This document shows positions 6,525 through 46,599 of a DNA stretch of 64,000 nucleotides, in pieces. Origin of the DNA: Actinomycetota bacterium (GTDB lineage: Bacteria; Actinomycetota; Geothermincolia; Fen-727; Anoxymicrobiaceae); NCBI GenBank assembly GCA_018831265.1, contig JAHJCO010000059.1:76708-140707 (forward strand), read 5' to 3'. The notes below the pieces were generated by a model. It worked only from the letters and a program-made list of their open reading frames with translations. It had not been told where the DNA came from and searched no databases. Every line of letters begins with the position of its first letter. The stretch's first letter is position 1. Both the position numbers and the translations under genes were made by a program.

Positions 6525-6659
6525 CTAGAGTAGGGGTCAGGCACTATTCTATTCATTTCCCTGATAAGTCCGCCACCGGGGCCGTGACTTGACTGGTGCC
6601 TGACCCCTACTCTAGTCGACCCCTACTCTAGTCATGTGACTTGAATCCCGCCTGGCACC
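6525..6659. repeat. MITE/REP-like element with perfect 20-bp terminal inverted repeats (ctagagtaggggtcaggcac ... gtgcctgacccctactctag) plus partial duplicate
   Basis: Perfect TIRs at 6525-6544 and 6596-6615; shares GGGGTCAGGCAC core with other elements. Confidence 0.8.
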
Positions 6660-20728: not shown

Positions 20729-20967
20729 CTTATACCCCCTGTTCGAAGCCTGCAGCCCTGATGGTGAATACATCACAACCGACATCTCCCCGTTTGTCTT
20801 CCTGACACAGCGATTCTACCCCTTTCCCTATCGATCTTCGCATCTTCATCACCAATTCCACCGCCTGCTCCGCCTCAGCCTATCACCTGGGACTTCCGGG
20901 GCGGGCGAGTAGGCATCAAGGTCATTGCACTTCAAATGAATTGAATCTGACCTGACCCCCGGTTGAG

Positions 20968-26529: not shown

Positions 26530-26822
26530 GGGGTCAGGCTCAATTCAATTTCAGCGATCAAGCCGCACGACCTGTATGGTGTGAATTGAATTGTGCCTGA
26601 CCCCTAGCCTAGTCAACTTGCGGGCCGCTCGAAGTATTCAATTTCAGCGATCAAGCCGCACGACCTGTATGGTGTGAATTGAATTGTGCCTGACCCCTAG
26701 CCTAGTCAACTTGCGGGCCGCTCGAAGTATTCAATTTCAGCGATCAAGCCGCCCGATCTGTATGGTGTGAATCGAATTGTGCCTGACCCCTAGCTGAGTC
26801 ACTTGTGGCCGCTCAAGGTATT
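26530..26822. repeat. Tandem array (~93-bp unit, ~3 copies) of a MITE-like element with GGGGTCAGGC(T/A)CAATTCAATT inverted arms
   Basis: Units starting ~26581, 26674, 26767 are near-identical, including the internal segment. Confidence 0.85.
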
Positions 26823-30222: not shown

Positions 30223-31155
30223 ATGGCGAGAGACTTCAAGGGCTGGTTCAACGAGACCCGCAGGGCGGAGCTGATGCTGATAGGCATCACCGTCATCTGG
30301 GGGCTTACCTTCGCGCTGGTCAAGCGGTCGCTGGACGACATAGCGCCGTTCACCTTCATGGCCTGGCGGTTCATGCTGGCCGCGGCGATCATGCTCGTCC
30401 TCTGCGCGCGGAAGTGGAAGGGCCTGGACCGCCGCATCCTGGTCGCCGGCCTGCTGCTGGGGGCGCTGCTGTACGGCTCCTACGCGTTCCAGACCTTCGG
30501 GCTGCAGTACACCTCCGCGGGCAACGCCGGCTTCATCACCGGCCTCTTCATAGTATTCACGCCGCTGCTCTCCGTGCTGTTCCTGAGGCACAGGCCCGGC
30601 GCCAAGTCCCTTCTGGCGGTGGGCATAGCGCTGTGCGGGCTGTGGGTGCTCTCCGTGCAACCGAACATGGGCATCAACAAGGGGGACGCGCTGGTACTGG
30701 CGTGCGCCTTCACCTACTCGGTGCACATCATCCTGCTGGACAGGTACGTGAAGGTGCACGACCTGGCGCTGCTCACCTTAATCCAGATGGTGGTGCTGGC
30801 GGTGGCCAACACCGGCTCGGGTCTGGTGTTCGAGGAGTTCATCCTCCCCCCCAACGCCTTCGTCTGGATGACGGTCATCATCTGCGGGGCGCTGGCCAGC
30901 GCGCTGGCGTTCTACGTGCAGGGGCACGCCCAGAAGGTGCTGACCCCGGTTCGGACCTCGATGGTGCTCATCATGGAGCCGGTCTTCTCCGTGGTGTTCG
31001 GCATCATCATCCTGGGGGAGTCGCTTTCCTGGCGGGGCGCCCTCGGCAGCGGGCTGATCTTCGCCGGGATGCTGCTTACCGAGCTGCCTGACGAAATTCG
31101 CATCGGGGTCAGACGCCGATGCGAAAAAGTCAATCCTTCAGAGCCCGGTAAATAG
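30223..31155 (+). CDS. DMT-superfamily (EamA) transporter
   Basis: 10 TM helices, two EamA repeats; last ~20 codons run into REP hairpin 31097-31125. Confidence 0.8.
   Translation: MARDFKGWFNETRRAELMLIGITVIWGLTFALVKRSLDDIAPFTFMAWRFMLAAAIMLVLCARKWKGLDRRILVAGLLLGALLYGSYAFQTFGLQYTSAGNAGFITGLFIVFTPLLSVLFLRHRPGAKSLLAVGIALCGLWVLSVQPNMGINKGDALVLACAFTYSVHIILLDRYVKVHDLALLTLIQMVVLAVANTGSGLVFEEFILPPNAFVWMTVIICGALASALAFYVQGHAQKVLTPVRTSMVLIMEPVFSVVFGIIILGESLSWRGALGSGLIFAGMLLTELPDEIRIGVRRRCEKVNPSEPGK
31097..31125. repeat. REP-like hairpin TTCGCATCGG-GGTCAGAC-GCCGATGCGAA
   Basis: Identical to 23418-23446; abuts the 3' end of the RAYT gene. Confidence 0.8.
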
Positions 31156-31861
31156 TCGCAGGATGGACACCGAGGTGCCCGGCCACTCCGGCGACGCTGA
31201 AGCCGCGATCTCTAATGGCACTCCTGATAACGTCGTTCCTCGCGCCGGCGTCCTTGGTGCCCTTGAGGAGTGAGTTCAGTATCAGCGCCTGGTCTTTCAT
31301 GCTGGAGGCTTCGTGAAGCCCCGCGAGAACGTACCCGGTGAATTCTTCACGCGCCCTGGAGGGATTGTCTGAGAAGCATCCGAGAACGAAAGAGGTCGTC
31401 AGGAAGTCGGGTTCAATACAGAGGCCGGCCGTGGCTGAGTAACTGCTCCACCTCCAGTTCTCCGGGGACCCAGCCATGCCTTCCTTGACTGGATTGAGAA
31501 AGATATAGCGGAACAAGGCAAACAGGTGACGCTCGTTCTCCACTAGCGGAGAAAGAAACCTGCCCTGAACGACATGTCCAATCCTCTTGTGCTTCCATGC
31601 GAAGTACCGGCAGTAGTTTCCGTTCAGCTGCTGCATTCCCTCAGAAAGGTTGGCCTCGGGCGTTTCGATCAGAATGTGATAGTGGTTTCCCATCAGGCAG
31701 TAAGCATGGCAGTTCCAACGGAAATCGCGGATCGTGCCAGCCAGTCCCTTGATGAACACGCGACGATCTCCGTTCGTCAGAAAGATCTTCTGTTTATCGT
31801 TCCCTCGGGACATGACGTGGTAGAAAGCCCCTGGGAACAGCTGTCGCGGCTGTCGCCCCAT
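31130..31861 (-). CDS. REP-associated tyrosine transposase (RAYT; IS200/IS605 Y1 HUH family) with C-terminal HTH
   Basis: HUH motif 'GNHYHILIE'; Y1 transposase fold length; C-terminal 'LGVHPATIYRALKD' HTH; flanked by palindromes (31097-31125 and gtgtgcaagttgcacac at ~31890). Confidence 0.85.
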   Translation of the reverse strand: MGRQPRQLFPGAFYHVMSRGNDKQKIFLTNGDRRVFIKGLAGTIRDFRWNCHAYCLMGNHYHILIETPEANLSEGMQQLNGNYCRYFAWKHKRIGHVVQGRFLSPLVENERHLFALFRYIFLNPVKEGMAGSPENWRWSSYSATAGLCIEPDFLTTSFVLGCFSDNPSRAREEFTGYVLAGLHEASSMKDQALILNSLLKGTKDAGARNDVIRSAIRDRGFSVAGVAGHLGVHPATIYRALKD

Positions 31862-31973
31862 GAAGCAATTCTAGCAAGCAAAACAAGCGTGTGCAAGTTG
31901 CACACCTGAAAAGGTCACGAATAATACTCCCGCCGTGTTTTTTTCGCAACGGCGTCTGGCACCATTGCGAAAG

Positions 31974-33143
31974 TCAGATCCAGCCGCGTTTCGCCATGAA
32001 GTTCACCAGCGGACGGCCCAGGCCCGACTTGTACAGGAGCGGAAGTCGCTTCACCGAGGCCTCGTCGTTGCCGCCCTTCATCAGGGGGGCGAGCTTGCCG
32101 AACCCCAGACCCCGGTCCCGGGCCAGCAGGGCCGTCATGTGCATCTGTCCCTCCGGCAGGACGAGGTCACTCGGCCTGGATATAAGGCTCATCGCCCCGC
32201 TGGGGCAGGTGGAGACGCACAGCCCGCAGCCGATGCACCTGTCGGGGTCCACCCGCATCGACCCCTCCCGCGAGACCAGCGCCTCCATCTGGCAGCGCTC
32301 GACGCAGGTCTCGCACTCGTTGCAGAGGTCCGAGTCGATGCGGGCCTGGAAGTTGGTGTAGACGGCCTCGGCCGGCCTCTCGTGCATCTTGAGGAGCTTG
32401 AGCACCCCGCAGCAGCACGAGCAGCAGCAGCATATGTTGATTATCTCCTTGCAGTTGGTCGGTGCGAGCACCAGGCCCGCCTCCTCCGCCCGATCGAGTA
32501 TCTTCAGGGCTTCGTCGACGTCGATCTTCCTGCCTTTGCCGTAGTCGACGTAGTACCGGGCGCCGAGCCCGAAGATGAGGCAGGACTCCAGCGGCTTGTC
32601 GCAGCCCCTGTCCACGAGGTGCTGGGCCTTGCGGCAGATGCAGTCGGCGACCGCGACCTCCGTCTGCCCCTTTACCATCTCACGGACCATGTCGTAGCTG
32701 CCTATGGTCGTGGTCGCCTCGACGGCCGAGTTCACCGGCACCACCCGGAACTGCTTGACCACCGTGTCCGCGAAGTACGGGTCTATCTCCTCCGCGAGCT
32801 CGACGTACTCCCTGTCGATGCTGTCCACGTGGAACTCGTGGATCCCCACAACGAACTGGGCCGCCTGGTAGAACCTGTCCTTCCCGCTCCTCAGGCTCAG
32901 TATGAGGCCCTTGCGCGCCATGGACTCGAGCTTCTGCTCCGCTTCGGCCGCGGGGATTCCCAGGCGCTTCGCGATAGCGCCGGCGGGCTCGGGGAACTGG
33001 CGGAGCTTCATGGTCAGCTCCGCCTCCTCCGGGGTGAAGAACTTCCGGAGTATATCCAGCTCTTTTCCGGTCGGGGTCTCGGGGTAGCCCCCCGGGAGCC
33101 TGTCGAGGAACTCTCGCAGTTCGACGTAAACGGTCTCTGCCAT
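31974..33143 (-). CDS. 4Fe-4S dicluster-domain protein with poly-Cys run (CCCCSCCC) and N-terminal wHTH-like region
   Basis: 'CNECETCVERC' and 'CIGCGLCVSTCP' ferredoxin motifs; 'NICCCCSCCCG'; start MAETVYVEL; the track's extension to 33272 is unsupported. Confidence 0.65.
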   Translation of the reverse strand: MAETVYVELREFLDRLPGGYPETPTGKELDILRKFFTPEEAELTMKLRQFPEPAGAIAKRLGIPAAEAEQKLESMARKGLILSLRSGKDRFYQAAQFVVGIHEFHVDSIDREYVELAEEIDPYFADTVVKQFRVVPVNSAVEATTTIGSYDMVREMVKGQTEVAVADCICRKAQHLVDRGCDKPLESCLIFGLGARYYVDYGKGRKIDVDEALKILDRAEEAGLVLAPTNCKEIINICCCCSCCCGVLKLLKMHERPAEAVYTNFQARIDSDLCNECETCVERCQMEALVSREGSMRVDPDRCIGCGLCVSTCPSGAMSLISRPSDLVLPEGQMHMTALLARDRGLGFGKLAPLMKGGNDEASVKRLPLLYKSGLGRPLVNFMAKRGWI

Positions 33144-33993: not shown

Positions 33994-34070
33994 CGCGTAC
34001 GGACGCCCCGCGTGTCACTGGGACGGGCGATAATGATCGGTATGAAGAGACTCACGTCCCGGGAGTGTCT

Positions 34071-37000
34071 GTGAACTTCCAGAGCAACACCCTGGTCGAG
34101 GCCATCGCCTCGCTGTGCGCGGAAGAGCCGTTGAAGCCCAAGATCATAATCGCGCCCTCCAACCGGGCCGGGAACCAGTGGCTCGAGCGCGTCGCCATGT
34201 CGGGCCGTCCGGTCCTGAACGCCGGCTCCCGGACGCTCCGGGGGCTCGCCCTCGAGCTGTCCGCTCCCCTGCTGGTCGAGCGGGGGCTGCAGCTGGTGGG
34301 AGGCATCCGCGCACAGGTTCTGATGGACAGGGCCTTCGCCCGTATCTCCCCGAAAGAGCCTTACCTGTCTCGTCTCGAGCCGGGGCCGGGCCTGGTCCGC
34401 ACCCTGCTCGGAGCCGTGAGGGACCTTCGCCTCGCCGGGCTGGATGCGGACGCCGTCGACGAGCGCGCGTTCGAGGTGAGGTCCAAGGGCGCCGAGGTGA
34501 AGGCGCTCCTCGAGGCGTTCGAATCCGTGCTGGCGGAGGGCGGCTTAACCGACTACGCAGGGTGTCTCCGCCTTGCCGTCGAGCGCGTCACCTCCGATAG
34601 AGGGCTCCCGCTCGACTCCCTTGTGGCGATCCCCGCGGACCTCGAGGAGCGCCTGGCGGGCCTCGAACGCTCTCTCTGGTCGGCGATGCCTGAGAGCAAC
34701 CGTCGCATACTCGAGGTGGACCTGCCCGGCGACCCGAGCACCGACTCCTCGCGTCGTTACATGCTGAGCTTCGCCCTGCACCCCCAGACCGCGCCCGACC
34801 CCGGGCCGGACGGCGGCGGAGTCAGGATGTTCCGCGCGGTGGGCGAGGTCAACGAGGTCCGAGAGGTCTTCAGGCGGGTCGTCGAGGAGGGCCTGCCCTT
34901 CGACGACGTCGAGGTGTTGTACACCGAACCGGCAACGTACCTCCCGCTCCTGTTCGAGCTGGCCTCCCGCCAGGCGGCCGACGGGTCCGATGAGCTCCCG
35001 GTGACCTTCCTGGAGGGCGTCCCCACCCGGTACTCGAGGCCCGGAAGGGCACTGGCCGGGTGGCTGGAGTGGGTGAGGGGGGGCGATCTCCCCCAGGGTA
35101 CGCTGGTCCGCATGGTCCACGACGGGTTGCTCGAGATACCCGCGGTCGAGGGCGGCGATCTGAGCTTCGCGAGGCTGGGCGCGATACTACGGTCGGTGGC
35201 GATCGGGGCCGGGCGCGAGAGGTACCTGGCCTCGCTGGACTCGGAGGCCCGCGCCCTGACCTCGCAGATCGTGGGGCTGGACGAGGCGGAGGAGGAAGGG
35301 CGCGACGCGCGGAGACGTATCGGCCTCTCGGAGCGCCTGGAGGGCCTGGGCGCGCTGCGCGAGCTCATCGGCGGCCTCCTCGAGGTAGTCCCTTCCACCG
35401 GTGGGCAGGCGGAGGCGCTCAGCTCCGCGTCGCTGTTCCTCGAGAGGTACGCGAGGCACTCGGGGAAGTTCGACGAGTACAGCAGGGTGATACTGCTCGA
35501 CTCGGTGGCCGAGATCGAGCGGTGCCTCCAGGACGGCGAGGTTGCCGGCTTCGAACCCTGGAGCTGGCTCGATGAGGTGATCTCCTCGATCAGCGTCGAG
35601 GGATCGGGGCCTGCCCCGGGCCGGCTGCACACGGCCCCTGTGGACAAAGGCGGTCATTCCGGCCGCGGGCACACGTTCATCGTCGGCTTCGACGAGGCCC
35701 GGTTCCCCGCCGCGGGCAGGCAGGACCCCGTTCTGCTGGATGGCGAGAGAGAGCGGCTGTCGGACGATCTGCTCACGGGAGAAGCGAGGCTCACGCGCGA
35801 GCTGGAGCAGCTGATGCTGCTGTTCGCCCGGTTGAGGGGCGAGGTGACCTTGAGCTACTGCTGCCGGAGCCTCATCGACGATCGCGAGCTGTTCCCGAGC
35901 CCGGTGCTGCTGTCCGCCTACCGCGTGCTGGAGAAGCGCGACGGCGACCAGCAGGACCTGAACGCATACTGCGGGGACCCGGTCTCTTTCGCGCCGGCGT
36001 CGCCGGAGAGCGCCATCGACACCACCGAGTGGTGGCTTTCTCTCGCGTGCGGTCGGACCGACCGGCTGGTCCCGACCGGACTGGTCGTGGCGAGTTTCGG
36101 CCACCTGGGGCGCGGGATGAGGGCGCGCGAGATGAGGGAGAGCCCGGAGTTCACCGAGTACGACGGCTACGTGCCCGAGGCCGCCTCGGAGTGCGATCCC
36201 GCGCGCGAGGGGGCGAGGCCGCTCTCGGCGTCCGCCCTCGAGGAGCTCGCGAGGTGCCCGCTGGAGTATTTCCTCCACCGTGTCCTGCGCATAGATCCGC
36301 TCGAGGAGTACGAGATCGACCCCAACGAGTGGCTGGACGCCAGGCAGGTCGGCCACTTTCTCCACGGCTGCTTCAGGATCTTCCTCGAGCGCCTGGACGA
36401 GCGGGGCGAGCGCCCGAGCCGGGACGCCCACCTCGCCGAGCTGCGGCGCCTGTTCGACGATGAGCTCGCATACTGGCGGCGCGTGGTGCCTCCACACAAC
36501 GAGGCTTCCTACAAGGCCCAGGCCAGGATGCTCGAGCGCGCCGCCTGCATCTTCCTGACGGAGGAGGAGCTGCACTGCGTCGACAGGCGGCCTGCGTACT
36601 TCGAGGTCTCGGTGGGTCGGATGCCCGACCTGCCCGGGAGGCGAGGCAACGAGATAGACACCGCCGAGCCCGTGCTTGTCTCCCTGCCGAAGGGGATGGT
36701 CTTCCGCGCCCACGGGCAGATGGACAGGGTGGACGAGCTCCCTGGCGCACCCGAGGGCCGTCGCTTCGAGGTCTGCGACTACAAGTCGGGCGGCGCCGGC
36801 CGGTACGACGTCAACGACCCGTTCGCCTGCGGCCGTCACGTGCAGAACATCCTGTATACGCTGCTCCTGCAGAGCAGGCTCGACGAGCTCTTTCCGGGCG
36901 CGCGCGTAGAGGGTTTCAGCTACTACTTCCCCAGCCTGTACGGAAGGGGTGAGCGGGTGGGATGGACCATGGATGAGCTCGAGGCGGGGGAGACGGTCCT

Positions 37001-37220
37001 CGCGGATCTCTGTGCGATGCTCGCAACCGGCTGCTTCCCGTTCACCATCAACCCGAACCTCGACCTGACCTACAGCGATTTCGTCTTCGCGTACGGCGAT
37101 GTCGCCGATGCCGCCAGGCAGGCGAGAGTCAAGGTAGATAACCTCGCCAACGAGGCGCTGCTGCCTTACCGCGAGCTGCGCGCCCGCGAGCTGGACGAGG
37201 AACAGGAAGAGGGCGAATGA
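34071..37220 (+). CDS. addB: AddB/RexB-like PD-(D/E)XK nuclease subunit (no Walker A)
   Basis: GTG start with GGGAG RBS; C-terminal RecB-type nuclease motif 'FEVCDYKSG'; ~1050 aa; immediately upstream of and overlapping the AddA-like gene. Confidence 0.7.
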   Translation: MNFQSNTLVEAIASLCAEEPLKPKIIIAPSNRAGNQWLERVAMSGRPVLNAGSRTLRGLALELSAPLLVERGLQLVGGIRAQVLMDRAFARISPKEPYLSRLEPGPGLVRTLLGAVRDLRLAGLDADAVDERAFEVRSKGAEVKALLEAFESVLAEGGLTDYAGCLRLAVERVTSDRGLPLDSLVAIPADLEERLAGLERSLWSAMPESNRRILEVDLPGDPSTDSSRRYMLSFALHPQTAPDPGPDGGGVRMFRAVGEVNEVREVFRRVVEEGLPFDDVEVLYTEPATYLPLLFELASRQAADGSDELPVTFLEGVPTRYSRPGRALAGWLEWVRGGDLPQGTLVRMVHDGLLEIPAVEGGDLSFARLGAILRSVAIGAGRERYLASLDSEARALTSQIVGLDEAEEEGRDARRRIGLSERLEGLGALRELIGGLLEVVPSTGGQAEALSSASLFLERYARHSGKFDEYSRVILLDSVAEIERCLQDGEVAGFEPWSWLDEVISSISVEGSGPAPGRLHTAPVDKGGHSGRGHTFIVGFDEARFPAAGRQDPVLLDGERERLSDDLLTGEARLTRELEQLMLLFARLRGEVTLSYCCRSLIDDRELFPSPVLLSAYRVLEKRDGDQQDLNAYCGDPVSFAPASPESAIDTTEWWLSLACGRTDRLVPTGLVVASFGHLGRGMRAREMRESPEFTEYDGYVPEAASECDPAREGARPLSASALEELARCPLEYFLHRVLRIDPLEEYEIDPNEWLDARQVGHFLHGCFRIFLERLDERGERPSRDAHLAELRRLFDDELAYWRRVVPPHNEASYKAQARMLERAACIFLTEEELHCVDRRPAYFEVSVGRMPDLPGRRGNEIDTAEPVLVSLPKGMVFRAHGQMDRVDELPGAPEGRRFEVCDYKSGGAGRYDVNDPFACGRHVQNILYTLLLQSRLDELFPGARVEGFSYYFPSLYGRGERVGWTMDELEAGETVLADLCAMLATGCFPFTINPNLDLTYSDFVFAYGDVADAARQARVKVDNLANEALLPYRELRARELDEEQEEGE

Positions 37221-40200
37221 CCGTGCAGCCCGCGAGCCAGCCACCCCCGGACCAGGACCAGCGCGACCTGATCGTCAGCGCGCTCGACCGCAACGTTGTG
37301 GTCGAAGCCGCGGCCGGAACTGGGAAGACCACCAGCATGGTGGACCGCATGGTGGCGCTGCTTCGCACGGGTGCGTGCGACGATATCCGGAGGATGGCGG
37401 CGGTGACGTTTACCCGGAAGGCCGCCTCCGAGCTGCGCGACCGCTTCAGACTTGCCCTGGAGAAGGCCGTGCGCGGGGCCGCCGGCGACGAGAGGGGGCG
37501 CCTTGCCGGGGCGCTGGACAGCATAGACCAGTGCTTCGTGGGTACGATCCACTCGTTCTGCGGCCGGCTGCTCCGCGAGCGGCCCATAGAGGCGGGGGTG
37601 GACCTCGCCTTCGAGGAGCTCGACGAGGACGCCGATATGCGCCTGCGCCAGGAGGCATGGGCGGCATATGCCGAGTCGGTGATAGGGCTCGGCCCGGGGA
37701 GCGTGATCGACGAGCTCGACGACCTCAACCTGGACCTGTCCGACCTCGCCGACACCTTCTACAGGTTCGCCGAGTACCCGGACGTGGACGACTGGCCCCT
37801 GCCTCCCGAGAGCGAAATGCTCGAGGACCTCGACGAGGCGGCAGTAGCGGTGAAGCGTTTCACGGAGCGCATGAGGAAGCTCGCCGACAGGCTGCCCAGG
37901 GAGTGCGGCTCGGACCGGCTGATGCCGCGCTACTCGAAGATGCCGAGGGTGGTATCGCACTACGAGGACCTGAGCGAACGCGCTTCCATGCTCGAGCTCA
38001 TCGACATGTTCTTCGACAAGCGCTCGGGCGCGGTGCTAAAGGAGTGGGTGCAGAAGGGCGGGTTTACCCAGGAGGAGGCGCGCTCGGAGCGCGAGGCCTG
38101 GGACGCTTTCCGCGAGGAGTTCGCCGCGCCGCTCGCCGAGGCGTGGCGGGAGCTTCGCTACCGCACGGTCATGAAGGTGATAACCGAGGCCGGGGCCGTC
38201 TACGATCGCATGAGGGCGGAGCGCGGCCAGCTCGACTTCCAGGACCTGCTGATGAAGGCGGCCGGCCTGCTCAAGGGGAGCCCTCACGTGCGCTCCTACT
38301 TCGCAGGGCGCTACTCGCACCTGCTGGTCGACGAGTTCCAGGACACCGATCCCATACAGGCGGAGGTCATGCTGCTGCTTACCGCTACCGACCCCCGCCA
38401 GGACGACTGGCGCCTGTGCGTGCCCCGCGGCGGGTCGCTGTTCGTTGTGGGGGACCCCAAGCAGTCGATATACCGGTTCCGCAGGGCAGACATCGTTACC
38501 TACAACAGGGTGAAGCGGATGATCCTGGAGGGCGACGGCGGGAAGGGCCGCGGCATCGAGGTCCGGCTGTTCGCCAACTTCCGCACGTCGGCGGCCGTCA
38601 TCCAGTGGATAGACGAAGTCTTCGCGCCCAAGGGTGACTGCACGGACAAGTCCGGCAGGCTGGTTTGCTTCCCGGAGGCGGCCTCCGAGCAGTCTCCGGC
38701 CTACGTCCGGCTGGAGGCCGGCCGGAGCGAGTCCCTTCAGGGCGAGCTGGGAGGAGTGTTCCAGTTGACCATACCCTCCGACGAGATCCTGCTCACCTCC
38801 CACCTCGTGGAGGGCGGACCGCCGACCGCGCAGGAGGCCGCGGTCCTGGCGCGCCGGTACACCAGGAGCGAGCTTGCGGCGTCCTACGAGGCGGACCTCA
38901 TCGCCCGCTACATCCGGTGGGCGATAGACGATCGCGTCACCGTTCCCCGAAGCGAGAAGGAGCTCGAGGATATCCACAGGCGCATGCCCTCGTGCGAGGA
39001 CCCGGCCGCGCTTCGGGCCGAGGACTTCCTGATCATCACGCGAAACAAGACCCACCTGAGCACCTACGGCCAGGCACTCCAGAGGTACGGCATCCCGCAC
39101 CGGGTGACGGGGGGCACTGCCCTGAACGAGGTGGAGGAGCTCCGGCTGCTGCTGACCTGCCTCCGTGCGGTGGACAGGGTCGATGATCCCGTGGCGCTGG
39201 TCGGGGCACTGCGGAGCGAGCTGTTCGGCATCAGTGACGCGGCGCTATACCGGTTCAGGAGGAACGGCGGCCGATTCAACTACAACGGCCCGGTTCCCGA
39301 GGGGCTGCCCCCCGGGGACGAGGAGGCCATCACCGACGCCTTCGACAGGCTGCGCCGGTACCGCGGCTGGGTGAAGACCATGCCACCGCTGGCCGCCTTC
39401 GAGAAGGTCGTCTCGGACCTGGGGCTGATGGTGCTGGCCGCGACCCGCGACGGCGGAGACGTCCAGGCGGGCAGCCTCGGCAAGGCGCTCGAGTTGCTCA
39501 GGGGTGACCAGCGCGCGCACTGGAGCACCTCCCACCTGGTCGATTTCCTCGCCGACCTGGTCGAGGGCGAGTTCAGCTACGACGGGGTGTCGGCACGGTC
39601 ACATGAGGTCGGGGCGGTGAGGGTGATGAACCTCCACAAGGCCAAGGGGCTGGAGTCCACGGTGGTGTTCCTCGCCGACGGCTCCGGCGAGCCCAGGTCG
39701 GGCCCGGAGATCGTCATCGACCGCGGCGGCGACCGGACGATCGGCTACATCGGAGTGTTCGGCCCGAGGTGGGGCGCCTGGTACAGGCCCCTGCTGGCGG
39801 CGCCGGGCGGCTGGGCGGACCGCCAGGCGGTCGAGAAGGAGTTCGAGGCCGCCGAGAGGCTGAGGTTGCGCTACGTGGCGGCCACCAGGGCGGGCTCGGC
39901 GATGATCGTGTGCGAGCGCGAGGACGGCAGGGCCAACGGCTCCAATCCCTGGAAGTATTTCAGGGATCACCTCGCCGGGGTGCCCGACCTGCCTGACCCG
40001 GGCCCGAGGAGCGCACCATCACGGGAGGCGCTCGACATCTCGGTGGAGGACGTGACGAAGGCTTCAGAGGAGGCGGCCGGCAGGATGCGGCGCGCAGAAG
40101 GTCCCACCTACGCGAGGCTCGCGGCCAAAGAGTACGCGCTCCGGGGAAAAGATTTTGCAAAAGGGTCAGGCACTTTTGCACCATCAACCACGGGCGGGCC

Positions 40201-40684
40201 GGAGTATGGCATCAACTGGGGCACCGCCATGCACATGCTGCTGGAGCTGGCTATGAGCCGGCCGGGCTTCGATGTCGAGGCCTGGGCGGAGAGGGTGCTG
40301 GGGGAGAACGAGATCGATCCGGGTGAGACGCCGCGGGCGGTGGAGACCGTCCGGGCGGTCACCGGATCGGCGTTGTGGGAAAGAGCCCTTGCCTCCGACC
40401 TGTGCCTGACGGAGGTCCCGTTCCACATGCTCCTCGGGGATGCGGACATCCCCACCACGATGAACGGGGCCATGGACCTGGCTTTCCGCGAGGAGGGGGG
40501 TTGGGTCATAGTGGACTACAAGACCGACAGGATAAGCGCATCGAGGAGCGAGCGGGCCCTGGCGGACGAGTACGCCCCGCAGCTCGAGCTGTACGGCCGG
40601 GCCTGGGCGGGGTGCACCGGCGAGACCGTCAAGGAGACCGGCCTGTTCTTCGTGGACAACCGTACATACCACAGGATCAGATGA
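37217..40684 (+). CDS. addA: AddA/RecB-like UvrD-family helicase with C-terminal PD-(D/E)XK nuclease
   Basis: Walker A 'AAGTGKTT', 'TFTRKAASELRDR'; C-terminal 'GWVIVDYKTDRI'. Confidence 0.85.
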   Translation: MTVQPASQPPPDQDQRDLIVSALDRNVVVEAAAGTGKTTSMVDRMVALLRTGACDDIRRMAAVTFTRKAASELRDRFRLALEKAVRGAAGDERGRLAGALDSIDQCFVGTIHSFCGRLLRERPIEAGVDLAFEELDEDADMRLRQEAWAAYAESVIGLGPGSVIDELDDLNLDLSDLADTFYRFAEYPDVDDWPLPPESEMLEDLDEAAVAVKRFTERMRKLADRLPRECGSDRLMPRYSKMPRVVSHYEDLSERASMLELIDMFFDKRSGAVLKEWVQKGGFTQEEARSEREAWDAFREEFAAPLAEAWRELRYRTVMKVITEAGAVYDRMRAERGQLDFQDLLMKAAGLLKGSPHVRSYFAGRYSHLLVDEFQDTDPIQAEVMLLLTATDPRQDDWRLCVPRGGSLFVVGDPKQSIYRFRRADIVTYNRVKRMILEGDGGKGRGIEVRLFANFRTSAAVIQWIDEVFAPKGDCTDKSGRLVCFPEAASEQSPAYVRLEAGRSESLQGELGGVFQLTIPSDEILLTSHLVEGGPPTAQEAAVLARRYTRSELAASYEADLIARYIRWAIDDRVTVPRSEKELEDIHRRMPSCEDPAALRAEDFLIITRNKTHLSTYGQALQRYGIPHRVTGGTALNEVEELRLLLTCLRAVDRVDDPVALVGALRSELFGISDAALYRFRRNGGRFNYNGPVPEGLPPGDEEAITDAFDRLRRYRGWVKTMPPLAAFEKVVSDLGLMVLAATRDGGDVQAGSLGKALELLRGDQRAHWSTSHLVDFLADLVEGEFSYDGVSARSHEVGAVRVMNLHKAKGLESTVVFLADGSGEPRSGPEIVIDRGGDRTIGYIGVFGPRWGAWYRPLLAAPGGWADRQAVEKEFEAAERLRLRYVAATRAGSAMIVCEREDGRANGSNPWKYFRDHLAGVPDLPDPGPRSAPSREALDISVEDVTKASEEAAGRMRRAEGPTYARLAAKEYALRGKDFAKGSGTFAPSTTGGPEYGINWGTAMHMLLELAMSRPGFDVEAWAERVLGENEIDPGETPRAVETVRAVTGSALWERALASDLCLTEVPFHMLLGDADIPTTMNGAMDLAFREEGGWVIVDYKTDRISASRSERALADEYAPQLELYGRAWAGCTGETVKETGLFFVDNRTYHRIR
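40156..40180. repeat. REP hairpin (TGCAAAAG-GGTCAGGCA-CTTTTGCA) embedded in frame in the AddA-like CDS
   Basis: Encodes ...DFAKGSGTFAP... in the linker before the nuclease domain. Confidence 0.75.
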
Positions 40685-41514
40685 GCGAGCACATGCTTCT
40701 GCCCGAGGTCGACTTCTGCGCCTTCGACCTGGAGACGACGGGGCTGTCCAACTTCAGCCGGATAGTGGAGGTCGGGGCGGTCCGGTTCCGCCTCGAGGCG
40801 GTGCACGACCGTTTCAGCGAGCTGGTCCACCCCGGCAGGAGCATCCCCGAGGTGGTCATCGGCATACACGGAATCACCGACACCATGGTCGCGGGGGCCG
40901 CGGCGGCGCCGGAGGTTATCGATCGGTTCTTCGAGTTCGCGGACGGGTGCGTTCTAGTCGCGCACAACGCGGCGTTCGACTCCGGGATAATGGCCACCGA
41001 GTTGCACAGGGCCGGGCTGGAGCCGCCCGAGCCCCTCATCCTCGACACCATCGCGCTGGCCAGGAGGTTCCTGCCGAGGCTGCCGAGCTACGGGCTGGGC
41101 GCCCTCTCGCGCGATCTGGGCATCGGGCGGCCCCGCAAGCACCGCGCCCTCGAGGACGCGGAGGCCTGCAGGAGGATCTTCGAGAGAACCGTGCTCTCGG
41201 TCCCGGAGTGGCAAGGCCGGCCACTGGACCTGCTGGCCGATGCCGCCGGCGGCTGCACCCTGCGCTACCGGCCGCAGGCGCCCTCCGATCTGCCCCCCGG
41301 CATGGAGGCCATCCTCGCCGCCCTCGAGAGGCGCGGTGACGTGGTGGTAGTCTACAGGGGGGGCAGCAAGGGCACCGTGCCCAGGCGACTGTCGCCGGTA
41401 TCGGTGTACTCGGCGGGGGGTCACTGCTACATGGAGGCCCGCTGCCACGTGGACAACGTGACCAAGTCTTTCAGGGTCGACCGCATCGCCAGCGTAGAGC
41501 TCTGGGAGGACTGA
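40681..41514 (+). CDS. DEDDh 3'-5' exonuclease (DnaQ-like) fused to a C-terminal WYL-like domain
   Basis: Exo I 'FDLETTG', Exo II 'LVAHNAAFD', Exo III 'HRALEDA'; C-terminal 'VVVVYRGGSKG...RLSPVSVY..HCYMEARC...SFRVDRI' WYL pattern; ATGA overlap with the AddA-like gene. Confidence 0.7.
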   Translation: MSEHMLLPEVDFCAFDLETTGLSNFSRIVEVGAVRFRLEAVHDRFSELVHPGRSIPEVVIGIHGITDTMVAGAAAAPEVIDRFFEFADGCVLVAHNAAFDSGIMATELHRAGLEPPEPLILDTIALARRFLPRLPSYGLGALSRDLGIGRPRKHRALEDAEACRRIFERTVLSVPEWQGRPLDLLADAAGGCTLRYRPQAPSDLPPGMEAILAALERRGDVVVVYRGGSKGTVPRRLSPVSVYSAGGHCYMEARCHVDNVTKSFRVDRIASVELWED

Positions 41515-41521
41515 GCTTCCC

Positions 41522-43204
41522 ATGGCCAGGATGATCCCCGAGATAGAGGTCGGCCGGTATCCCCACGGCGAGGGACTCCTCTACCGCTGGCTCAAGGGGC
41601 TGCCCGACGATTACCGCGTCTTCCACGGCGTCCACCTGCTCCGGCAGTCCGGCGGCTCGCTGAGGCGCGGAGAGGCCGACTTCGTGGTGCTCCACAAGGA
41701 CCTGGGCTTCCTGGTGATAGAGGTCAAGGGCGGCAAGGTCACCTGCCAGCCGGGTAGGGGCCGGTGGACCTCGACGGACTACCGGGGCGAGGAGCATCCG
41801 ATCAAGGACCCGTTCCTGCAGGCTGAACGCAACGTCAACGCCATCGTCGAGCGCATCAGGGACTCAGGGGTGTTCGGCCCCGGCCCGCTGAAGACCCTGC
41901 CCGTCACGGTGGGCTACTGCGTAGCCTTCCCCGACGGGGTGGCGCAGCAGAAGAACCTCCCGCTGCACGTGGTGCCGGAGGTCGTCATAGACAGCCGGGA
42001 CGCGGCCCGGATGGCCGCGCGGATCGAGGGGCTGTTCGGCGCCTGGCGAAAGAAGAGGCCCGGATCGCGCGGCTTCACCCCCCGGGAGTTCAACGACCTG
42101 TGCAACAAGGTCCTGCTCACCCGGTTCAACGTGACCGTGCCCCTGAGCGTGAGATTCGGGAGGGAGAAGGAGCGCTTCGAGTCCCTGACCGACGAGCAGT
42201 GCCGCATCCTGGAGACCGTCTCCGGCGGGAAGCGCGCCCTGTTCAGGGGATACGCGGGGACGGGCAAGACGCAGTTGCTGATGGAGAACGCCAGGCGCTT
42301 CGCCGCCGCCGCCGCCCGGGTACTGGTGGTCTGCTACAACCAGCCGCTCGCGGAACTCCTCTCACAGTGGGCCGCGAACGTCTGCGGAGCCGGAGGCGTA
42401 ACGGTCAGGCACTTCCACGGCCTCGCCGAGGAGTATGCCGGCGAGGCGGGTCTCGACTTCGATGTCCCGCCGGAGGACGAGCCGGACGCGCTGCAGGCCT
42501 TCTACGAGAGGGGATCGGCGGCCCTGCTGGAGGCGGCGCTTGCCGAGGCGCCCGGACGTTTCGATTGCGTGCTGGTGGACGAGGGCCAGGACTTCCACCT
42601 GGAGTGGCTGCGGGTGCTCTCGGAGCTGCTCGACCCGGCGGGGATGGACGTCTTCCACATCTTCTACGACGAGCAGCAGAACGTCTACGGCAAGGAGCTC
42701 GAGTTCCCCTTCGAGGCCGTGCCCTACGACCTGAGCTATCAGATGCGCAGCACCGCGAACGTCTGCGAGGTCGCCCGGAAGGCCGGCTCGGTCGATATCC
42801 GGTGCTTCCCAGACTGGGTCAAAGGTGCCCCCGTGAAGTACTTCCCCTACCGTGAACCGTCCGAGCAGGTCGCCCTGATCGAGAAGGTGGTCAGGGAGCT
42901 TCTCGACAAAGGCATCGACCCCTCACAGGTGATGGTGATCTCGTCACACCGCAGGGCCCGCTCCTGCCTGGCCGGGGTCAACCGACTGCAGGGGTACCCG
43001 CTGGTGGAGTACCGGCCCCCCGGCGAGGAGGACACCATCGCGTTCTCCAGCCTGCACCGCGCCAAGGGCCTCGAGTCGGACGTGGTGATCTTCTGTGACG
43101 TGGACGGCGGCGAGCCGTACTGCAGCCGCTCAAACCAGTACGTGGCGGTCTCGCGCGCCCGCCACCTGCTCTACATCATCCACCGCAGGGACTGGAAGCT
43201 TTGA
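41522..43204 (+). CDS. NERD-domain nuclease fused to SF1 (UvrD/DUF2075-like) helicase
   Basis: N-terminal NERD 'GEADFVVLHKDLGFLVIEVKG'; Walker A 'GYAGTGKTQ', Walker B 'VLVDEGQD'; C-terminal 'SLHRAKGLESDVVIF'. Confidence 0.75.
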   Translation: MARMIPEIEVGRYPHGEGLLYRWLKGLPDDYRVFHGVHLLRQSGGSLRRGEADFVVLHKDLGFLVIEVKGGKVTCQPGRGRWTSTDYRGEEHPIKDPFLQAERNVNAIVERIRDSGVFGPGPLKTLPVTVGYCVAFPDGVAQQKNLPLHVVPEVVIDSRDAARMAARIEGLFGAWRKKRPGSRGFTPREFNDLCNKVLLTRFNVTVPLSVRFGREKERFESLTDEQCRILETVSGGKRALFRGYAGTGKTQLLMENARRFAAAAARVLVVCYNQPLAELLSQWAANVCGAGGVTVRHFHGLAEEYAGEAGLDFDVPPEDEPDALQAFYERGSAALLEAALAEAPGRFDCVLVDEGQDFHLEWLRVLSELLDPAGMDVFHIFYDEQQNVYGKELEFPFEAVPYDLSYQMRSTANVCEVARKAGSVDIRCFPDWVKGAPVKYFPYREPSEQVALIEKVVRELLDKGIDPSQVMVISSHRRARSCLAGVNRLQGYPLVEYRPPGEEDTIAFSSLHRAKGLESDVVIFCDVDGGEPYCSRSNQYVAVSRARHLLYIIHRRDWKL

Positions 43205-43212
43205 CTAGGATA

Positions 43213-43260
43213 GGGGTCAGGCACCATTCAAGTCATTTGACTTGAATGGTGCCTGACCCC
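43213..43260. repeat. Perfect 48-bp palindrome (GGGGTCAGGCACCATTCAAGTCA tt TGACTTGAATGGTGCCTGACCCC) between convergent genes
   Basis: 23-bp perfect arms; sits between the stops of 41522-43204 (+) and 43321-44544 (-). Confidence 0.85.
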
Positions 43261-43320
43261 GGGTCTAGTCACGCGCGGGGCTGAGAGCCCCGCCTCAAAG
43301 CCCCGCCTCGACAGCCCTCT

Positions 43321-44544
43321 TTAGAACCAGTCCGTCGTCCTGACGTTGGGCTGGTAGAGCATGCCGTAGAGGTCCATCGCGTAGCGGTCGGTCATGCCGG
43401 CGAGGTAGTCGCAGACCACGCGCTCGGCAGGCTCGCTCTCGAGGTCCTCCACCAGGGGAGCGGGGAGCATGTCCGGCTTGGAGGTGAAGGTCTCGTACAG
43501 GCCGCCTAGGATCTTCTCGCCCTTGAAGATCATCCGGCTGACGATCGGGTTCAGGTAGACCTCCTCCAGCATGGCGAGCGCGAAGGCGTGCACCTGGGAG
43601 TCTATGCCCGGCGAGAACGATACCAGCGGGTCGGGCAGCCCGCGCAGGGCCTCGGGGGTCCCCGCTCCCGCCCTGCTCATCCGCGCCACGGTCTCCCTCG
43701 CCACGTCGGTGATGAGGGCATTAATCATCCCGCTTATGGCCCGCATCCGCCCGACGTCCGTTCGGCTGGCGCCCAGGTCCCAGCCGGGGTCCTCGATGGA
43801 GTCGACCATCACCCGGGCGACCTGCGCGATGAGCGGCATCTCCGAGGCCCGCTCCCCGAGCCAGTCGGCGCTGACCAGCCCGATCCTGAGCGCGTCGTCC
43901 AGGTCGTGCGTGCACCAGGCGATGGTGTCGGCGACGTTGACCACCTGGCACTCGGCCGAGGGCTGCGGGTAGGCGGAGAACTCCTCGAGCACCGGCGGCT
44001 CGTCGAACAGCGTCCTGTGCCGCGCCAGCCCCTCGCGCGTCTCCCAGCAGAGGTTAAGGCCGCGGAACGACGGGTAGCAGCGCTCGAGCCAGTCGACCAC
44101 CCGCAGGCCGTGGAGGTTGTGGTCGAAGCCGCCGCCGTCCTTCATCAGCGCGTCCAGGGCGGTCTCACCGCCGTGCCCGAACGGGGGGTGCCCGATGTCG
44201 TGCACCAGGGCGATGGCCTCGGCCAGCGTCTCGTTGAGCCCGAGCATGCGCGCCAGCGAGCGGGATATCTGCATGACCTCAATGGTGTGGGTCATGCGGG
44301 TGCGGTAGAGGTCTCCCTCGTGGGTCACGAAGACCTGGGTCTTGTACTGGAGCTTGCGGAACGAGGAGGAGTACAGGATGCGGTCGCGGTCGAGCTGGAA
44401 GCGCGGGCGCTCCGGCTGGGGCGGCTCCTCGCACGCCCTGACCCGGCCGGCCTTCGCGGGCAGGTCGGTCCCCAGGGACGCCAGGGGCGACAGCTCCCCG
44501 CGCTCGCTGTCGTCGAAGTATGATGCGCCGCGCAGATCGACCAT
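43321..44544 (-). CDS. dgt: dGTPase-family HD phosphohydrolase
   Basis: HD motif 'HDIGHPPFGH'; dGTP triphosphohydrolase-like length and motifs. Confidence 0.85.
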   Translation of the reverse strand: MVDLRGASYFDDSERGELSPLASLGTDLPAKAGRVRACEEPPQPERPRFQLDRDRILYSSSFRKLQYKTQVFVTHEGDLYRTRMTHTIEVMQISRSLARMLGLNETLAEAIALVHDIGHPPFGHGGETALDALMKDGGGFDHNLHGLRVVDWLERCYPSFRGLNLCWETREGLARHRTLFDEPPVLEEFSAYPQPSAECQVVNVADTIAWCTHDLDDALRIGLVSADWLGERASEMPLIAQVARVMVDSIEDPGWDLGASRTDVGRMRAISGMINALITDVARETVARMSRAGAGTPEALRGLPDPLVSFSPGIDSQVHAFALAMLEEVYLNPIVSRMIFKGEKILGGLYETFTSKPDMLPAPLVEDLESEPAERVVCDYLAGMTDRYAMDLYGMLYQPNVRTTDWF

Positions 44545-44546
44545 GG

Positions 44547-45857
44547 TCAGCCCCGGTCCCGGCCTTCGGAGAAGTAGTTGATGAAGAACTGGGGGTTCAG
44601 CTCCGGCGCGAAGTAATGCTTGTGCTTTATCCAGACGAAACCGTCGCTCCGGGTGATCACCGCGACGTCGATGGGACCGCCCACCGACTCGGCGGCGAAA
44701 GACATCCTGGTCCTGAACGAGGTCAGGTTGACGAGCGACTCGGCGATCTCGGACAGCTCGTTCTTGGGCAGGCCCGCTATGACGTCTATGACCGGTATCA
44801 CGTACTTCTTGCGCCGGAACGCCGCGAGCTCCCTGGGTATCTCGGCGGCCCCTTTCCGGATCGAGTCCGCCCGCTTGCGGTAGTCCTCCTTGTCGCCGGC
44901 GTCCTTCAGCTCGCCGATGAGCCCCTCGACCAGCTCCCGGTAAGCGTCGAGCGCGACGCCATACCTGTTGAACACTGTATCGTTGTAGGCGGGCTCCGCG
45001 CCTTCCATGAATGCGTTCACCATCTCGCGGCGCGCGAAGGGGATAACGGCCGCCCGCGTGCCGGAGCCCGTGCCGGACACCCGGTCCTTCTTGAAACGAA
45101 GGTGGTCGCAGACCACGCCGCCCACCAGGAACTCGACCACGGTGGGGAAGATGTCCTTCTCGCCGAAGCCGGCCACCACCACGCCGGAGAGAGTGCCGAA
45201 CTGCGGTGCGGACGGGGACTTGATGAAGATATCGAGAGCCAGCCTGTTGAGCCTGCCCGAGTACGACGGGGAGGCGGGCCAGCGCCGGAACACCTTCCTG
45301 CGGATCTCCCTGATGACCTTCCCGTACTCGCCCTCGAGTCGCTCCGGGAGGTCGGCCGGCGTGCCTGGAAGCTCCTCGGCCTTGTCCCAGACCTTCAGTA
45401 TCGCGCGAAAGGCCTTGTTTGCCGCCTCCCGCTTCTGCTCGTCGGTGGCCGCGGGGTTCTCCTCGACCAGCGAGTTGACCGCGTCACGGAGGACGTTCTT
45501 CACTAAAACGAAGCAGTCAGTGACCGTGGCGGCGAAGTAATCGCGCTGCTCGGACTCGGGGTACAGGCGCATCTCGCCGGAGAGAAAGCCCATGAAATCG
45601 TCGGCGTACTCCTCGAGCGTGTCGAAACACCCCGCGCCGAGCCTCTCCTGGTAGAGGGACACCACGGTCTCCCAGGGCACTCCCATGTGGTTGGCGCCGC
45701 CGAACATCATCACCCCGACCGGGCACTTCCTGGAAAGCGTGAATATCTTGTTGGCGGAGGTGATGACCTTCTCGTCGCGGCCCTTCTGTATGGTCACGGC
45801 GCTATCGGCGGCCAGCGCCACCGCTTCCCTGTTCATAACCACTATCTCGGCGGTCAT
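44547..45857 (-). CDS. Proteasome beta-subunit-type Ntn hydrolase homologue with large insertions
   Basis: 'TAEIVVMNREAVALAADSAVT' matches proteasome beta N-terminus (Thr1); 'GSGTGSGT' and C-terminal 'GGPIDVAVITRSDGFV' match beta-subunit motifs; 436 aa vs ~200; start ATG at 45857 with GGAGG RBS (track start 45926 lies in repeat DNA). Confidence 0.55.
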   Translation of the reverse strand: MTAEIVVMNREAVALAADSAVTIQKGRDEKVITSANKIFTLSRKCPVGVMMFGGANHMGVPWETVVSLYQERLGAGCFDTLEEYADDFMGFLSGEMRLYPESEQRDYFAATVTDCFVLVKNVLRDAVNSLVEENPAATDEQKREAANKAFRAILKVWDKAEELPGTPADLPERLEGEYGKVIREIRRKVFRRWPASPSYSGRLNRLALDIFIKSPSAPQFGTLSGVVVAGFGEKDIFPTVVEFLVGGVVCDHLRFKKDRVSGTGSGTRAAVIPFARREMVNAFMEGAEPAYNDTVFNRYGVALDAYRELVEGLIGELKDAGDKEDYRKRADSIRKGAAEIPRELAAFRRKKYVIPVIDVIAGLPKNELSEIAESLVNLTSFRTRMSFAAESVGGPIDVAVITRSDGFVWIKHKHYFAPELNPQFFINYFSEGRDRG

Positions 45858-45865
45858 GCACACCT

Positions 45866-45985
45866 CCGGGGTCAAACCTGGTTCTTTGCATTTCTTGCAT
45901 TTGGGGTCAAACCTGAGATCTTGCATACCCCTGACGACTGCAACAAGAACGTAAGAAACGCAGAATCTCAGGTTTGACCCCTAGA
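45866..45985. repeat. MITE-like element, family 4: 17-bp perfect inverted repeats GGGGTCAAACCTGAGAT ... ATCTCAGGTTTGACCCC plus extra half-copy
   Basis: IRs at ~45902-45918 and 45966-45982; half copy at ~45868. Confidence 0.75.
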
Positions 45986-46079: not shown

Positions 46080-46535
46080 ATGCGGCGCAGGAGTACGTCC
46101 GGGACGCTCTTCACCATAGGGTACGAGGGTCTGAGCCCTGGTGACCTGGTGAAGACACTGCGGCACAACGGTGTCGAGCTCGTCTTAGACGTCCGCCAGC
46201 GGGCCTCCAGCCGCAAGGCCGGTTTCTCCAAGTCGGTCCTGAAGTCCAACCTGGAGAAGCACGGGATAAGCTACCAGCACTTCCCCGAGCTCGGCAGCCC
46301 ACCAGACCTGCGAAAGAAGTACAACGCCGACGGTGACCGCGCCTACTTCATCCGGCACTACAGGAACTCGCTCGAGGGCAAGGGTTCCATCCTGCAGGAG
46401 TTGGCCAACCTCGCCTCGACGATGCCGGTCGCGCTGGTCTGCTACGAGGCCGACCCGGGCCATTGCCACCGCTCGATCGTGGCCTCCGAGATGGCCCGCC
46501 TGTCGACGCCCGCCCTCCAGGTCCAGGACCTGTAA
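46080..46535 (+). CDS. DUF488-family protein
   Basis: 'TLFTIGYEG...VLDVRQ...GISYQHFPELG' DUF488 pattern. Confidence 0.65.
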   Translation: MRRRSTSGTLFTIGYEGLSPGDLVKTLRHNGVELVLDVRQRASSRKAGFSKSVLKSNLEKHGISYQHFPELGSPPDLRKKYNADGDRAYFIRHYRNSLEGKGSILQELANLASTMPVALVCYEADPGHCHRSIVASEMARLSTPALQVQDL

Positions 46536-46599
46536 AGGGAGACCGGCGCCCTTGACGGAACATATTTCCAACGGGCAGTGGCTTGCAAAGGGGGTAGGA

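Follow-up and report, generated by a model that had tools for sequence, protein, structure and literature searches.

The locus described here raises the question whether an AddAB-type helicase-nuclease has been extended by two further DNA-processing enzymes that serve the same purpose, or whether it has come to lie beside genes of another calling, such as defence. It belongs to a stretch of 64,000 nucleotides (contig JAHJCO010000059.1 of an Actinomycetota bacterium of the family Anoxymicrobiaceae), which we call the window. Positions 34071-43204 of the window hold four intact co-directional genes on the plus strand: addB, addA, a gene for a DEDDh exonuclease fused to a WYL domain (gene 3) and a gene for a NERD nuclease fused to a superfamily 1 (SF1) helicase (gene 4). 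A first-pass annotation had suggested that they may be a composite end-processing or anti-phage module rather than the canonical recBCD-analogue locus. The reading we prefer, and hold tentatively, is that of a damage-inducible end-processing operon in which an ordinary AddAB is extended by two accessory genes.

The open reading frames (ORFs) and their junctions, read from the sequence, bear out the earlier description of four packed plus-strand genes with overlapping starts and stops. The addB stop codon (TGA, 37218-37220) overlaps the addA start (ATG at 37217) by four nucleotides in an ATGA, and the gene-3 start (ATG at 40681) overlaps the addA stop (40682-40684) in another; both junctions are consistent with translational coupling. 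Between the end of gene 3 (41514) and the start of gene 4 (41522) are seven intergenic bases (41515-41521), not the eight reported before. Pfam agrees with the domains proposed earlier for all four products. A further gene falls just beyond the range considered at that time, an HD + HD_assoc dGTP triphosphohydrolase-like gene (43321-44544, minus strand; matched in Pfam, NCBIfam and PADLOC), hereafter the HD gene.

For comparison we used about a dozen loci of the window's own clade, whose gene 4 is 53-78% identical. One of them, L007 (about 92% identical), comes from an independently named metagenome-assembled genome and has a gene order identical to that of the window, so an assembly chimera is unlikely. 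Against L007, the ratio of nonsynonymous to synonymous divergence (dN/dS) is 0.08-0.23 over all four genes, which shows purifying selection on each of them.

Gene 2 (37217-40684, 1155 aa) is an AddA-like subunit, an SF1A helicase-nuclease. It combines a UvrD-type motor (Pfam UvrD-helicase, 4.4e-50, and UvrD_C) with a C-terminal RecB-family nuclease (PDDEXK_1), its motifs are intact (Walker A at residue 31, DEFQD at 372, DYKT at 1100) and its best solved relative is Bacillus subtilis AddA (3U44_A, 3.2e-36). Gene 1 (34071-37220, 1049 aa), directly 5' of addA, has the traits of an AddB subunit. Its only Pfam match is the C-terminal RecB-family PD-(D/E)XK nuclease (PDDEXK_1, residues 718-992, 5.3e-22), with the DYKS motif intact at residue 903. 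The N-terminal domain is not a motor: gene 1 has no helicase match in Pfam, and Walker A ([AG]xxxxGK[ST]) is absent from this domain in all five orthologs. No sequence match to gene 1 was found in PDB. The GTG start at 34071 is backed by ortholog N-termini, by a GGGAG ribosome-binding site and by the position of the promoter; a longer start at 33900 is ruled out by the same N-termini and by the promoter motif, which lies downstream of it at 34013-34034.

Since gene 1 carries the C-terminal nuclease only and no Walker A, the pair, with its one motor and two nucleases, resembles AddAB and not AdnAB. Both AdnAB subunits are motors of the UvrD type, and an AdnAB identity is ruled out by the lack of a motor in gene 1 and of any AdnB chain among the PDB matches of gene 2. 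With B. subtilis AddAB (PDB 3U44/3U4Q) the pair shares the order addB-addA, a UvrD-type AddA with C-terminal RecB nuclease, and an AddB with C-terminal PD-(D/E)XK nuclease and no working motor. Bacillus AddB, however, keeps its Walker A and has a four-cysteine Fe-S cluster around the nuclease with CxxCx5C spacing, and gene 1 shows neither that Walker A nor that spacing. Cysteines 729, 836, 981 and 988 are conserved among close orthologs of the window's AddB, with C-terminal spacing C-x6-C. Neither subunit comes near its NCBIfam equivalog cut-offs, gene 1 reaching about 26 bits against addB/rexB models over the nuclease part only (cut-offs 486-904) and gene 2 225.4 and 212.4 bits against the addA models (addA_alphas 860.75; addA_Gpos 707.65), which points to a divergent AddAB clade. 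The AddA family to which gene 2 belongs is very large: its homologs at 47-54% identity fill at least 120 clusters, and JGI names many of these 'helicase/nuclease subunit A'.

Next, we consider the region upstream of addB. A motif of the RecA-NDp/PafBC promoter type, TGTCACTGGGACGGGCGATAAT (TGTCAC-N10-GATAAT), lies at 34013-34034 on the plus strand, 37 nt 5' of the addB start. The mycobacterial RecA-NDp consensus is tTGTCRgtg-8nt-TAnnnT (PMC5656591), and this motif is the target of PafBC (PMC6789036, PMC8223512). Hexamers and spacing in the window agree with this consensus, which is a mycobacterial one, except that the -10 hexamer begins with G where the consensus has T. The relaxed pattern TGTCR-N11-KANNAT matches nowhere else in the 64-kb window. 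Upstream of addB, TGTCAC-N10-TAnnAT also occurs in L007, L009 and L012, and as a variant in L008; before addB the motif is thus kept in five loci, the window included, where the flanks are otherwise unalignable. When eight motif regions are aligned, nothing stays invariant but GTCA, one G, and the -10 hexamer's A and T.

The same motif stands before other genes of the neighbourhood in relatives. It precedes the HD gene in L012 (13501-13522, minus strand, perfect) and in L009 (about 13085-13106, minus strand, with one mismatch, cGTCAC), and it precedes sbcD in L010 (4141-4162, plus strand), where it heads an sbcD-sbcC-NERD-helicase-HD string. The HD and sbcD motifs suggest a damage regulon that includes a dNTP triphosphohydrolase. 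That TGTCAC-N10-(-10) is simply the general promoter form of the lineage is ruled out by its single match in 64 kb and by its absence before gene 3 of L009. In mycobacteria adnA, the analogue of AddAB, is controlled exclusively by PafBC (PMC8682763), and by analogy the predicted promoter of the window would be induced by DNA damage. A Pfam scan of 38 window ORFs turned up no regulator of the helix-turn-helix (HTH)-WYL type, and a generic sigma-70 promoter scan of 33-46.5 kb found no promoter. With its very large AddA family, its housekeeping surroundings and its damage-type promoter motif, addBA here looks like the ordinary orthologue of the lineage, and the contrast drawn by the first-pass annotation with a canonical recBCD-analogue locus falls away.

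Gene 3 (40681-41514, 277 aa) joins a DEDDh 3'-5' exonuclease to a WYL domain, both above the Pfam gathering score (RNase_T, 1.9e-30; WYL, 2.2e-11, PF13280 reaching 44 bits across residues 209-274, where 21.8 would suffice). All three exonuclease motifs (ExoI DxE, ExoII NxxxD, ExoIII Hx4D) are present, with D16, E18, N96, D100, H154 and D159 invariant in 38 homologs; the WYL domain has an invariant Y225 and a conserved FRxDRI motif in the homolog alignment. The AlphaFold2 model has a predicted local distance difference test score (pLDDT) of 89.6, and the fold of its N-terminal domain matches the PolC exonuclease, DnaQ, the DinG exonuclease domain and ExoX. Against L007 the dN/dS of gene 3 is 0.077. 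Homolog N-termini back the ATG at 40681 and rule out a longer start at 40375.

A C-terminal WYL domain above the Pfam threshold is shared with known WYL sensors (PafBC; the PIF1-WYL protein of Thermotoga elfii). In gene 3, however, it is fused to a DEDDh exonuclease and accompanied by no HTH, so the protein is not a transcription factor. We found no paper describing a DEDDh-WYL fusion protein, and none linking AddAB to NERD helicases. In a single case from Planctomycetota (L003/L004, 12367-15641, minus strand) a DEDDh-WYL gene lies about 1.5 kb from genes for an XPB-like helicase (XPB_DRD/ERCC3_RAD25_C) and a DUF790 protein, a pair that resembles the archaeal XPB-Bax1 helicase-nuclease pair.

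Gene 4 (41522-43204, 560 aa) is, as proposed earlier, a fusion of a NERD nuclease of the PD-(D/E)XK type with an SF1 helicase (Pfam NERD, 1.9e-12; UvrD_C_2; P-loop helicase matches). An alignment of 59 homologs shows no substitution at D53, G246, K249, T250, D353 or E354, and conservation of 90% or more at E67 and K69; both the D...ExK nuclease site and the full set of SF1 motifs are thereby retained. Its AlphaFold2 model (pLDDT 93) has SLFN11/14, UvrD, Upf1 and Dna2 as nearest folds, all of them SF1 helicases and some (SLFN11/14, Dna2) with a nuclease domain too, while a PDB sequence search gave nothing useful. In PADLOC, against which the first-pass annotation had proposed to check the four proteins, gene 4 matches RTasNERD-Hel (PDLC03813) at 2.1e-55 and the NERD+UvrD model C3a187 at 4.5e-29, and gene 3 matches Cas-associated DEDDh and WYL models and PDC-S48.

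The RTasNERD-Hel match places gene 4 in the same profile-level family as the NERD-helicases sometimes linked to reverse transcriptases of the DRT/UG34 type. This family ('cluster 485'), built of an N-terminal NERD and a C-terminal helicase, is the partner of 7 of 17 UG34 members (PMC9226505). A DRT/UG34 system is ruled out here, as no reverse transcriptase domain was found in the neighbouring ORFs scanned (28.4-49.5 kb). DruE, BrxC/PglX and DrmA/DrmB, which an accessory helicase of Druantia, BREX or DISARM would have beside it, are absent from the scanned ORFs of the window and from all loci of its clade. The partners seen with the window's gene-4 clade are only HD, DEDDh(-WYL), addBA and sbcDC, which sets it apart from the NERD-SF1 proteins of UG34, Druantia, BREX and DISARM. 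The earlier label 'Nhi-like/DUF2075' does not survive: the PADLOC Nhi model is hit at E=2.8e-4 with 17.7 bits, over the P-loop only (residues 222-271), and PF09848 is not matched at all. What gene 4 shares with Nhi is an N-terminal nuclease and an SF1 helicase in one polypeptide; it differs in that its nuclease is a NERD domain and in that it sits in an operon and does not stand alone.

Comparison of gene neighbourhoods within the clade shows which parts of the arrangement are stable. In the window, L007, L008, L009, L012, the P0126 locus and L097, genes 3 and 4 are direct neighbours separated by 7-67 nt, and this spacing holds in every locus that has both genes. The HD gene adjoins or nearly adjoins gene 4 in the window, L007, L008, L009, L010, L012 and the P0126 locus, that is, wherever enough sequence is present, with the exception of L098. 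In six of the eight informative loci, addBA lies within a few kilobases of genes 3 and 4. A database pair of genes 3 and 4, 78-81% identical, apparently sits on one 3.6-kb contig.

Gene order, on the other hand, changes between lineages. Of the loci examined at the DNA level, only the window and L007 have the order addB-addA-gene 3-gene 4-(HD). L008, L009, L012 and the P0126 locus have [EamA]-gene 3-gene 4-(HD, opposite strand)-addB-addA, and L010 has sbcD-sbcC-gene 4-HD. The four-gene operon is therefore not typical of the clade: four other lineages keep genes 3 and 4 as a separate unit, and HD lies between it and addBA. The operon is apparently a lineage-specific fusion, probably derived, and it appears to have placed genes 3 and 4 under the addBA promoter. 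Gene 3, gene 4 and HD form an accessory trio of patchy occurrence in Geothermincolia-like genomes. The earlier idea that genes 3 and 4 were added to an AddAB locus holds; L099 and L100 have addBA in the same backbone and lack both genes. The composite end-processing or anti-phage module is partly supported: genes 3 and 4 recur beside addBA in two arrangements and beside sbcDC in L010, and distant relatives of gene 4 adjoin defence genes, but addBA itself is canonical for the lineage and no alternative to the canonical locus.

The window's housekeeping backbone (Pkinase, PHP, bPH_2/SHOCT, LytR, Lon, CoA ligase, M48, BPD_transp_1, SBP_bac_3, EamA) matches that of the relatives L001/L009, L097, L099 and L100, and the region is syntenic over more than 25 kb. 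This shared backbone indicates core chromosome with no recognisable defence island. Restriction, toxin-antitoxin, integrase and reverse-transcriptase genes were all missing among the 38 window ORFs scanned against Pfam, and the composition profile of the window (G+C about 65%) gave no island signature. The proteins are identical to entries of an 'Actinobacteria bacterium' metagenome-assembled genome; among named organisms, Candidatus Geothermincolia, Anoxymicrobiaceae and Anoxymicrobium japonicum come nearest.

The HD gene deserves separate attention because its family has both ordinary and anti-phage members. Its product resembles the dGTPase/Dgt family in having HD and HD_assoc domains, in passing TIGR01353 and in matching the PADLOC dGTPase model (1.8e-91), a model that does not separate the ordinary from the anti-phage kinds. 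NCBIfam does separate them. Against the dGTPase model NF002326 the protein scores 363.8 bits (cut-off 390) and against the anti-phage dGTPase model NF041026 240.6 bits (cut-off 400); it thus stays below both cut-offs and comes nearer to the ordinary model. It differs from the family also in its consistent pairing with a NERD-helicase. Over the same divergence, gene 4 and HD are 64-66% identical as against 42-46% for addBA.

Taken together, these observations favour repair as the role of the extended operon. The argument rests on the stable core location, on the damage-type promoter shared by addBA, HD and sbcDC, and on the recurrence, through rearrangements, of three kinds of end-processing enzyme as neighbours. 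The slow evolution of gene 4 and HD and the better fit of HD to the ordinary dGTPase model point the same way, as does the ability of WYL domains to bind single-stranded DNA, known from the PIF1 helicase. According to the account cited in PMC6789036, the WYL domain of that helicase binds single-stranded DNA and stimulates the enzyme to which it is attached.

In the operon as we picture it, DNA damage would activate the promoter at 34013-34034, and one polycistronic mRNA, ending probably at a hairpin at 43213-43260, would yield AddB, AddA, the DEDDh-WYL exonuclease and the NERD-SF1 helicase-nuclease. AddAB would unwind and resect broken ends. The DEDDh enzyme would trim 3' tails that are single-stranded or 3' ends that are blocked, its WYL domain being a putative module for binding or sensing single-stranded nucleic acid, and the NERD-helicase would act as a second helicase and endonuclease on ends, flaps or branched substrates. 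Co-transcription, these substrates and the cooperation with AddAB are predictions drawn from the sequence. The B. subtilis cluster, which runs addB-addA-sbcD-sbcC, would offer a parallel, with a second end-processing pair (nuclease and ATPase) following addA in the same direction. In the window the downstream pair is instead DEDDh-WYL and NERD-SF1, not SbcD-SbcC, and in the relative L010 sbcDC comes first and the NERD-helicase after it. Mycobacterial AdnAB offers a second parallel as an actinobacterial end-resection helicase-nuclease with a TGTCR...TAnnnT motif at equal spacing; apart from the missing motor in gene 1, the window departs from it in having GATAAT as its -10 instead of TAnnnT.

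Several findings weigh against this reading. L099 and L100 are nearer to the window than L009 is (AddA 53% versus 46%, EamA 65-67% versus 58%) and carry EamA...Cyclase-addB-addA in the same backbone, with no gene 3, gene 4 or HD within 10 kb. The region upstream of their addB gave no RecA-NDp-like motif. In L100 a FitA-like/PIN toxin-antitoxin pair (5421-6087) lies between EamA and Cyclase-addB-addA, the usual place of the trio, so this interval may be a variable spot. The first-pass annotation had named, as one half of what would refute its module, relatives lacking genes 3 and 4, and that half holds for these closest AddA relatives. In L098 gene 4 stands alone among transposase genes. Where genes 3 and 4 have a promoter region of their own, in the commoner arrangement, the TGTCAC element is absent from it, which would make damage control of genes 3 and 4 specific to the window's lineage.

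Further points on the same side come from the wider family of gene 4. We took 80 metagenomic relatives of 25-36% identity, clustered their neighbours without bias and annotated one representative per cluster. Most of these relatives adjoin defence rather than repair genes: DruE was found in 15 loci (L017, L025, L029, L032, L035, L037, L044, L047, L059 and others), BrxC in five with PglX in three (BREX; L018, L019, L024), DrmB in five with DrmA in four (DISARM; L066, L071, L073, L081), and a TmtA-like gene in six. In L084 the neighbours of the relative include GmrSD and a type III restriction-modification system. Twenty-two relatives of gene 4, at best 44% identical, are on viral or proviral contigs, all of them without the partner genes of the clade; no full-length DEDDh-WYL gene was found on viral contigs. 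Among the 80 relatives none has an HD or DEDDh-WYL neighbour. A few (about 32-34% identity) adjoin end-processing pairs, AddB/AddA-like in L031, AdnAB-like in L016 and SbcCD-like in L048.

These facts would fit an explanation in which genes 3 and 4 and HD are an anti-phage or anti-plasmid cassette in a variable spot beside housekeeping addBA. The NERD-helicase and the DEDDh enzyme would then break down foreign DNA, with the dGTPase depleting the dNTP pool; the fusion with addBA would be incidental, or would let the cassette use ends or single strands made by AddAB on invading linear DNA. The defence neighbours of distant relatives, the viral and proviral copies, the transposases of L098, the absence of the trio from L099 and L100 with the toxin-antitoxin pair of L100, and the PADLOC matches of gene 4, gene 3 and HD all fit such a cassette. 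We nevertheless consider it less likely than the repair reading, of which it is the strongest competitor. The window's own gene-4 clade (53-78%) was never seen accompanied by DruE, BREX, DISARM or reverse transcriptase, and the trio lies in a stable housekeeping backbone where the ORFs scanned include no integrase and no other defence gene. HD fails the anti-phage dGTPase model (240 versus 400) and does better with the ordinary one, the Nhi model is unmatched by gene 4, HD and the sbcDC-gene 4-HD string bear the damage-type motif, and gene 4 and HD evolve more slowly than addBA.

A more far-reaching proposal goes beyond the operon. Gene 3, gene 4 and HD would be an undescribed three-gene accessory system, coupled mechanistically to AddAB or SbcCD, wired to a RecA-NDp-type regulon in deep-branching Actinomycetota and serving as back-up resection or as repair-coupled immunity against linear invading DNA. 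Possibly, the WYL domain would here sense single-stranded DNA made by AddAB and direct the nucleases and dNTP depletion. We regard this system as improbable.

It seems no more probable that genes 3 and 4 are independent general enzymes, a DnaQ-like exonuclease and a helicase, that came near addBA by chance in a slowly rearranging region, the ATGA overlap having arisen from genome compaction after a local rearrangement. Such an origin agrees with the stand-alone DEDDh-WYL homologs in unrelated contexts of Planctomycetota and a deltaproteobacterium, with L013 and L014 (gene 4 42% identical), which have no HD or addAB within 10 kb, with the gene-3 homolog of Candidatus Anoxymicrobium japonicum (L097, 9358-9978), which has only 206 aa and lacks the WYL domain, although it lies 22 nt 5' of the NERD-helicase, and with synteny over more than 25 kb, by which linkage could be inherited and not selected. 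It is opposed by a tie to end-processing genes that survives three rearrangements, including the switch from addBA to sbcDC, by the short spacing of genes 3 and 4 in every locus with both, and by the like pairings in the distant lineages L016, L031 and L048.

Returning to the preferred operon, its end can be tentatively placed. Between the convergent gene 4 and HD lies a palindrome with a perfect 23-bp stem (43213-43260), which is a copy of a repeat resembling repetitive extragenic palindromic (REP) sequences and was also reported as inverted repeat I1. Its arm, GGGGTCAGGCACCATTC, has 10 copies in the window where 0.31 are expected; REP-like repeats occur at 6533-6607, 26530-26790, 31951-31967, 43213-43260 and 60277-60293. 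Judged from its position, the hairpin probably ends the operon transcript, a predicted terminator role. No T-run follows its stem and the scan for intrinsic terminators in 33-46.5 kb did not call it; that scan gave five hits versus 4.1 expected, a number attributable to chance, and none at an operon boundary.

A gene for a homolog of REP-associated tyrosine transposases (RAYT) is present at 31130-31861 (minus strand; NF047646, 69.5 bits, below the cut-off of 80). It is part of an insertion of about 880 bp (31095-31975) that is missing from L007 and is the only mobile feature of the locus. Synonymous divergence (dS) from L007 is 0.07-0.08 in gene 4 and HD versus 0.17-0.20 in addB, addA and gene 3, at a third-position G+C content (GC3) of about 0.9. 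Recent recombination or very strong codon bias could account for the low dS over 41522-44544.

Two further observations concern the surroundings. On the minus strand, 44547-45926 encodes a 459-aa ORF with no match in Pfam, NCBIfam or PADLOC; it ends 2 nt before the HD start and is therefore probably co-transcribed with HD. By tblastn against the clade loci L007-L012 it was found only in L007 (96.5% identity). The window also has large proteins with DUF5719 and/or TIG domains (11-2584, plus; 18080-20785, minus; 46333-47535, plus; 50911-53784, plus; 60329-61921, plus), one of them fused to a subtilase. Genes of this type flank the gene-4 relatives of L013 and L014 as well and are present in L100.

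The locus yields a hypothesis on repair versus defence; it is not a new kind of system and overturns no current understanding. If the operon is what we propose, deep-branching uncultured Actinomycetota would join mycobacteria and Streptomyces in having the RecA-NDp/PafBC-type promoter, which in them would govern an AddAB-type enzyme rather than AdnAB, with a dNTP triphosphohydrolase and sbcDC as candidate members of the damage regulon. The DEDDh-WYL fusion would be a simple model of a WYL domain that modulates an enzyme and not a transcription factor. The NERD-helicase family, with its Druantia, BREX and DISARM surroundings, would gain a role in DNA-end processing, which would bear on the exchange of parts between defence helicase-nucleases and repair enzymes.

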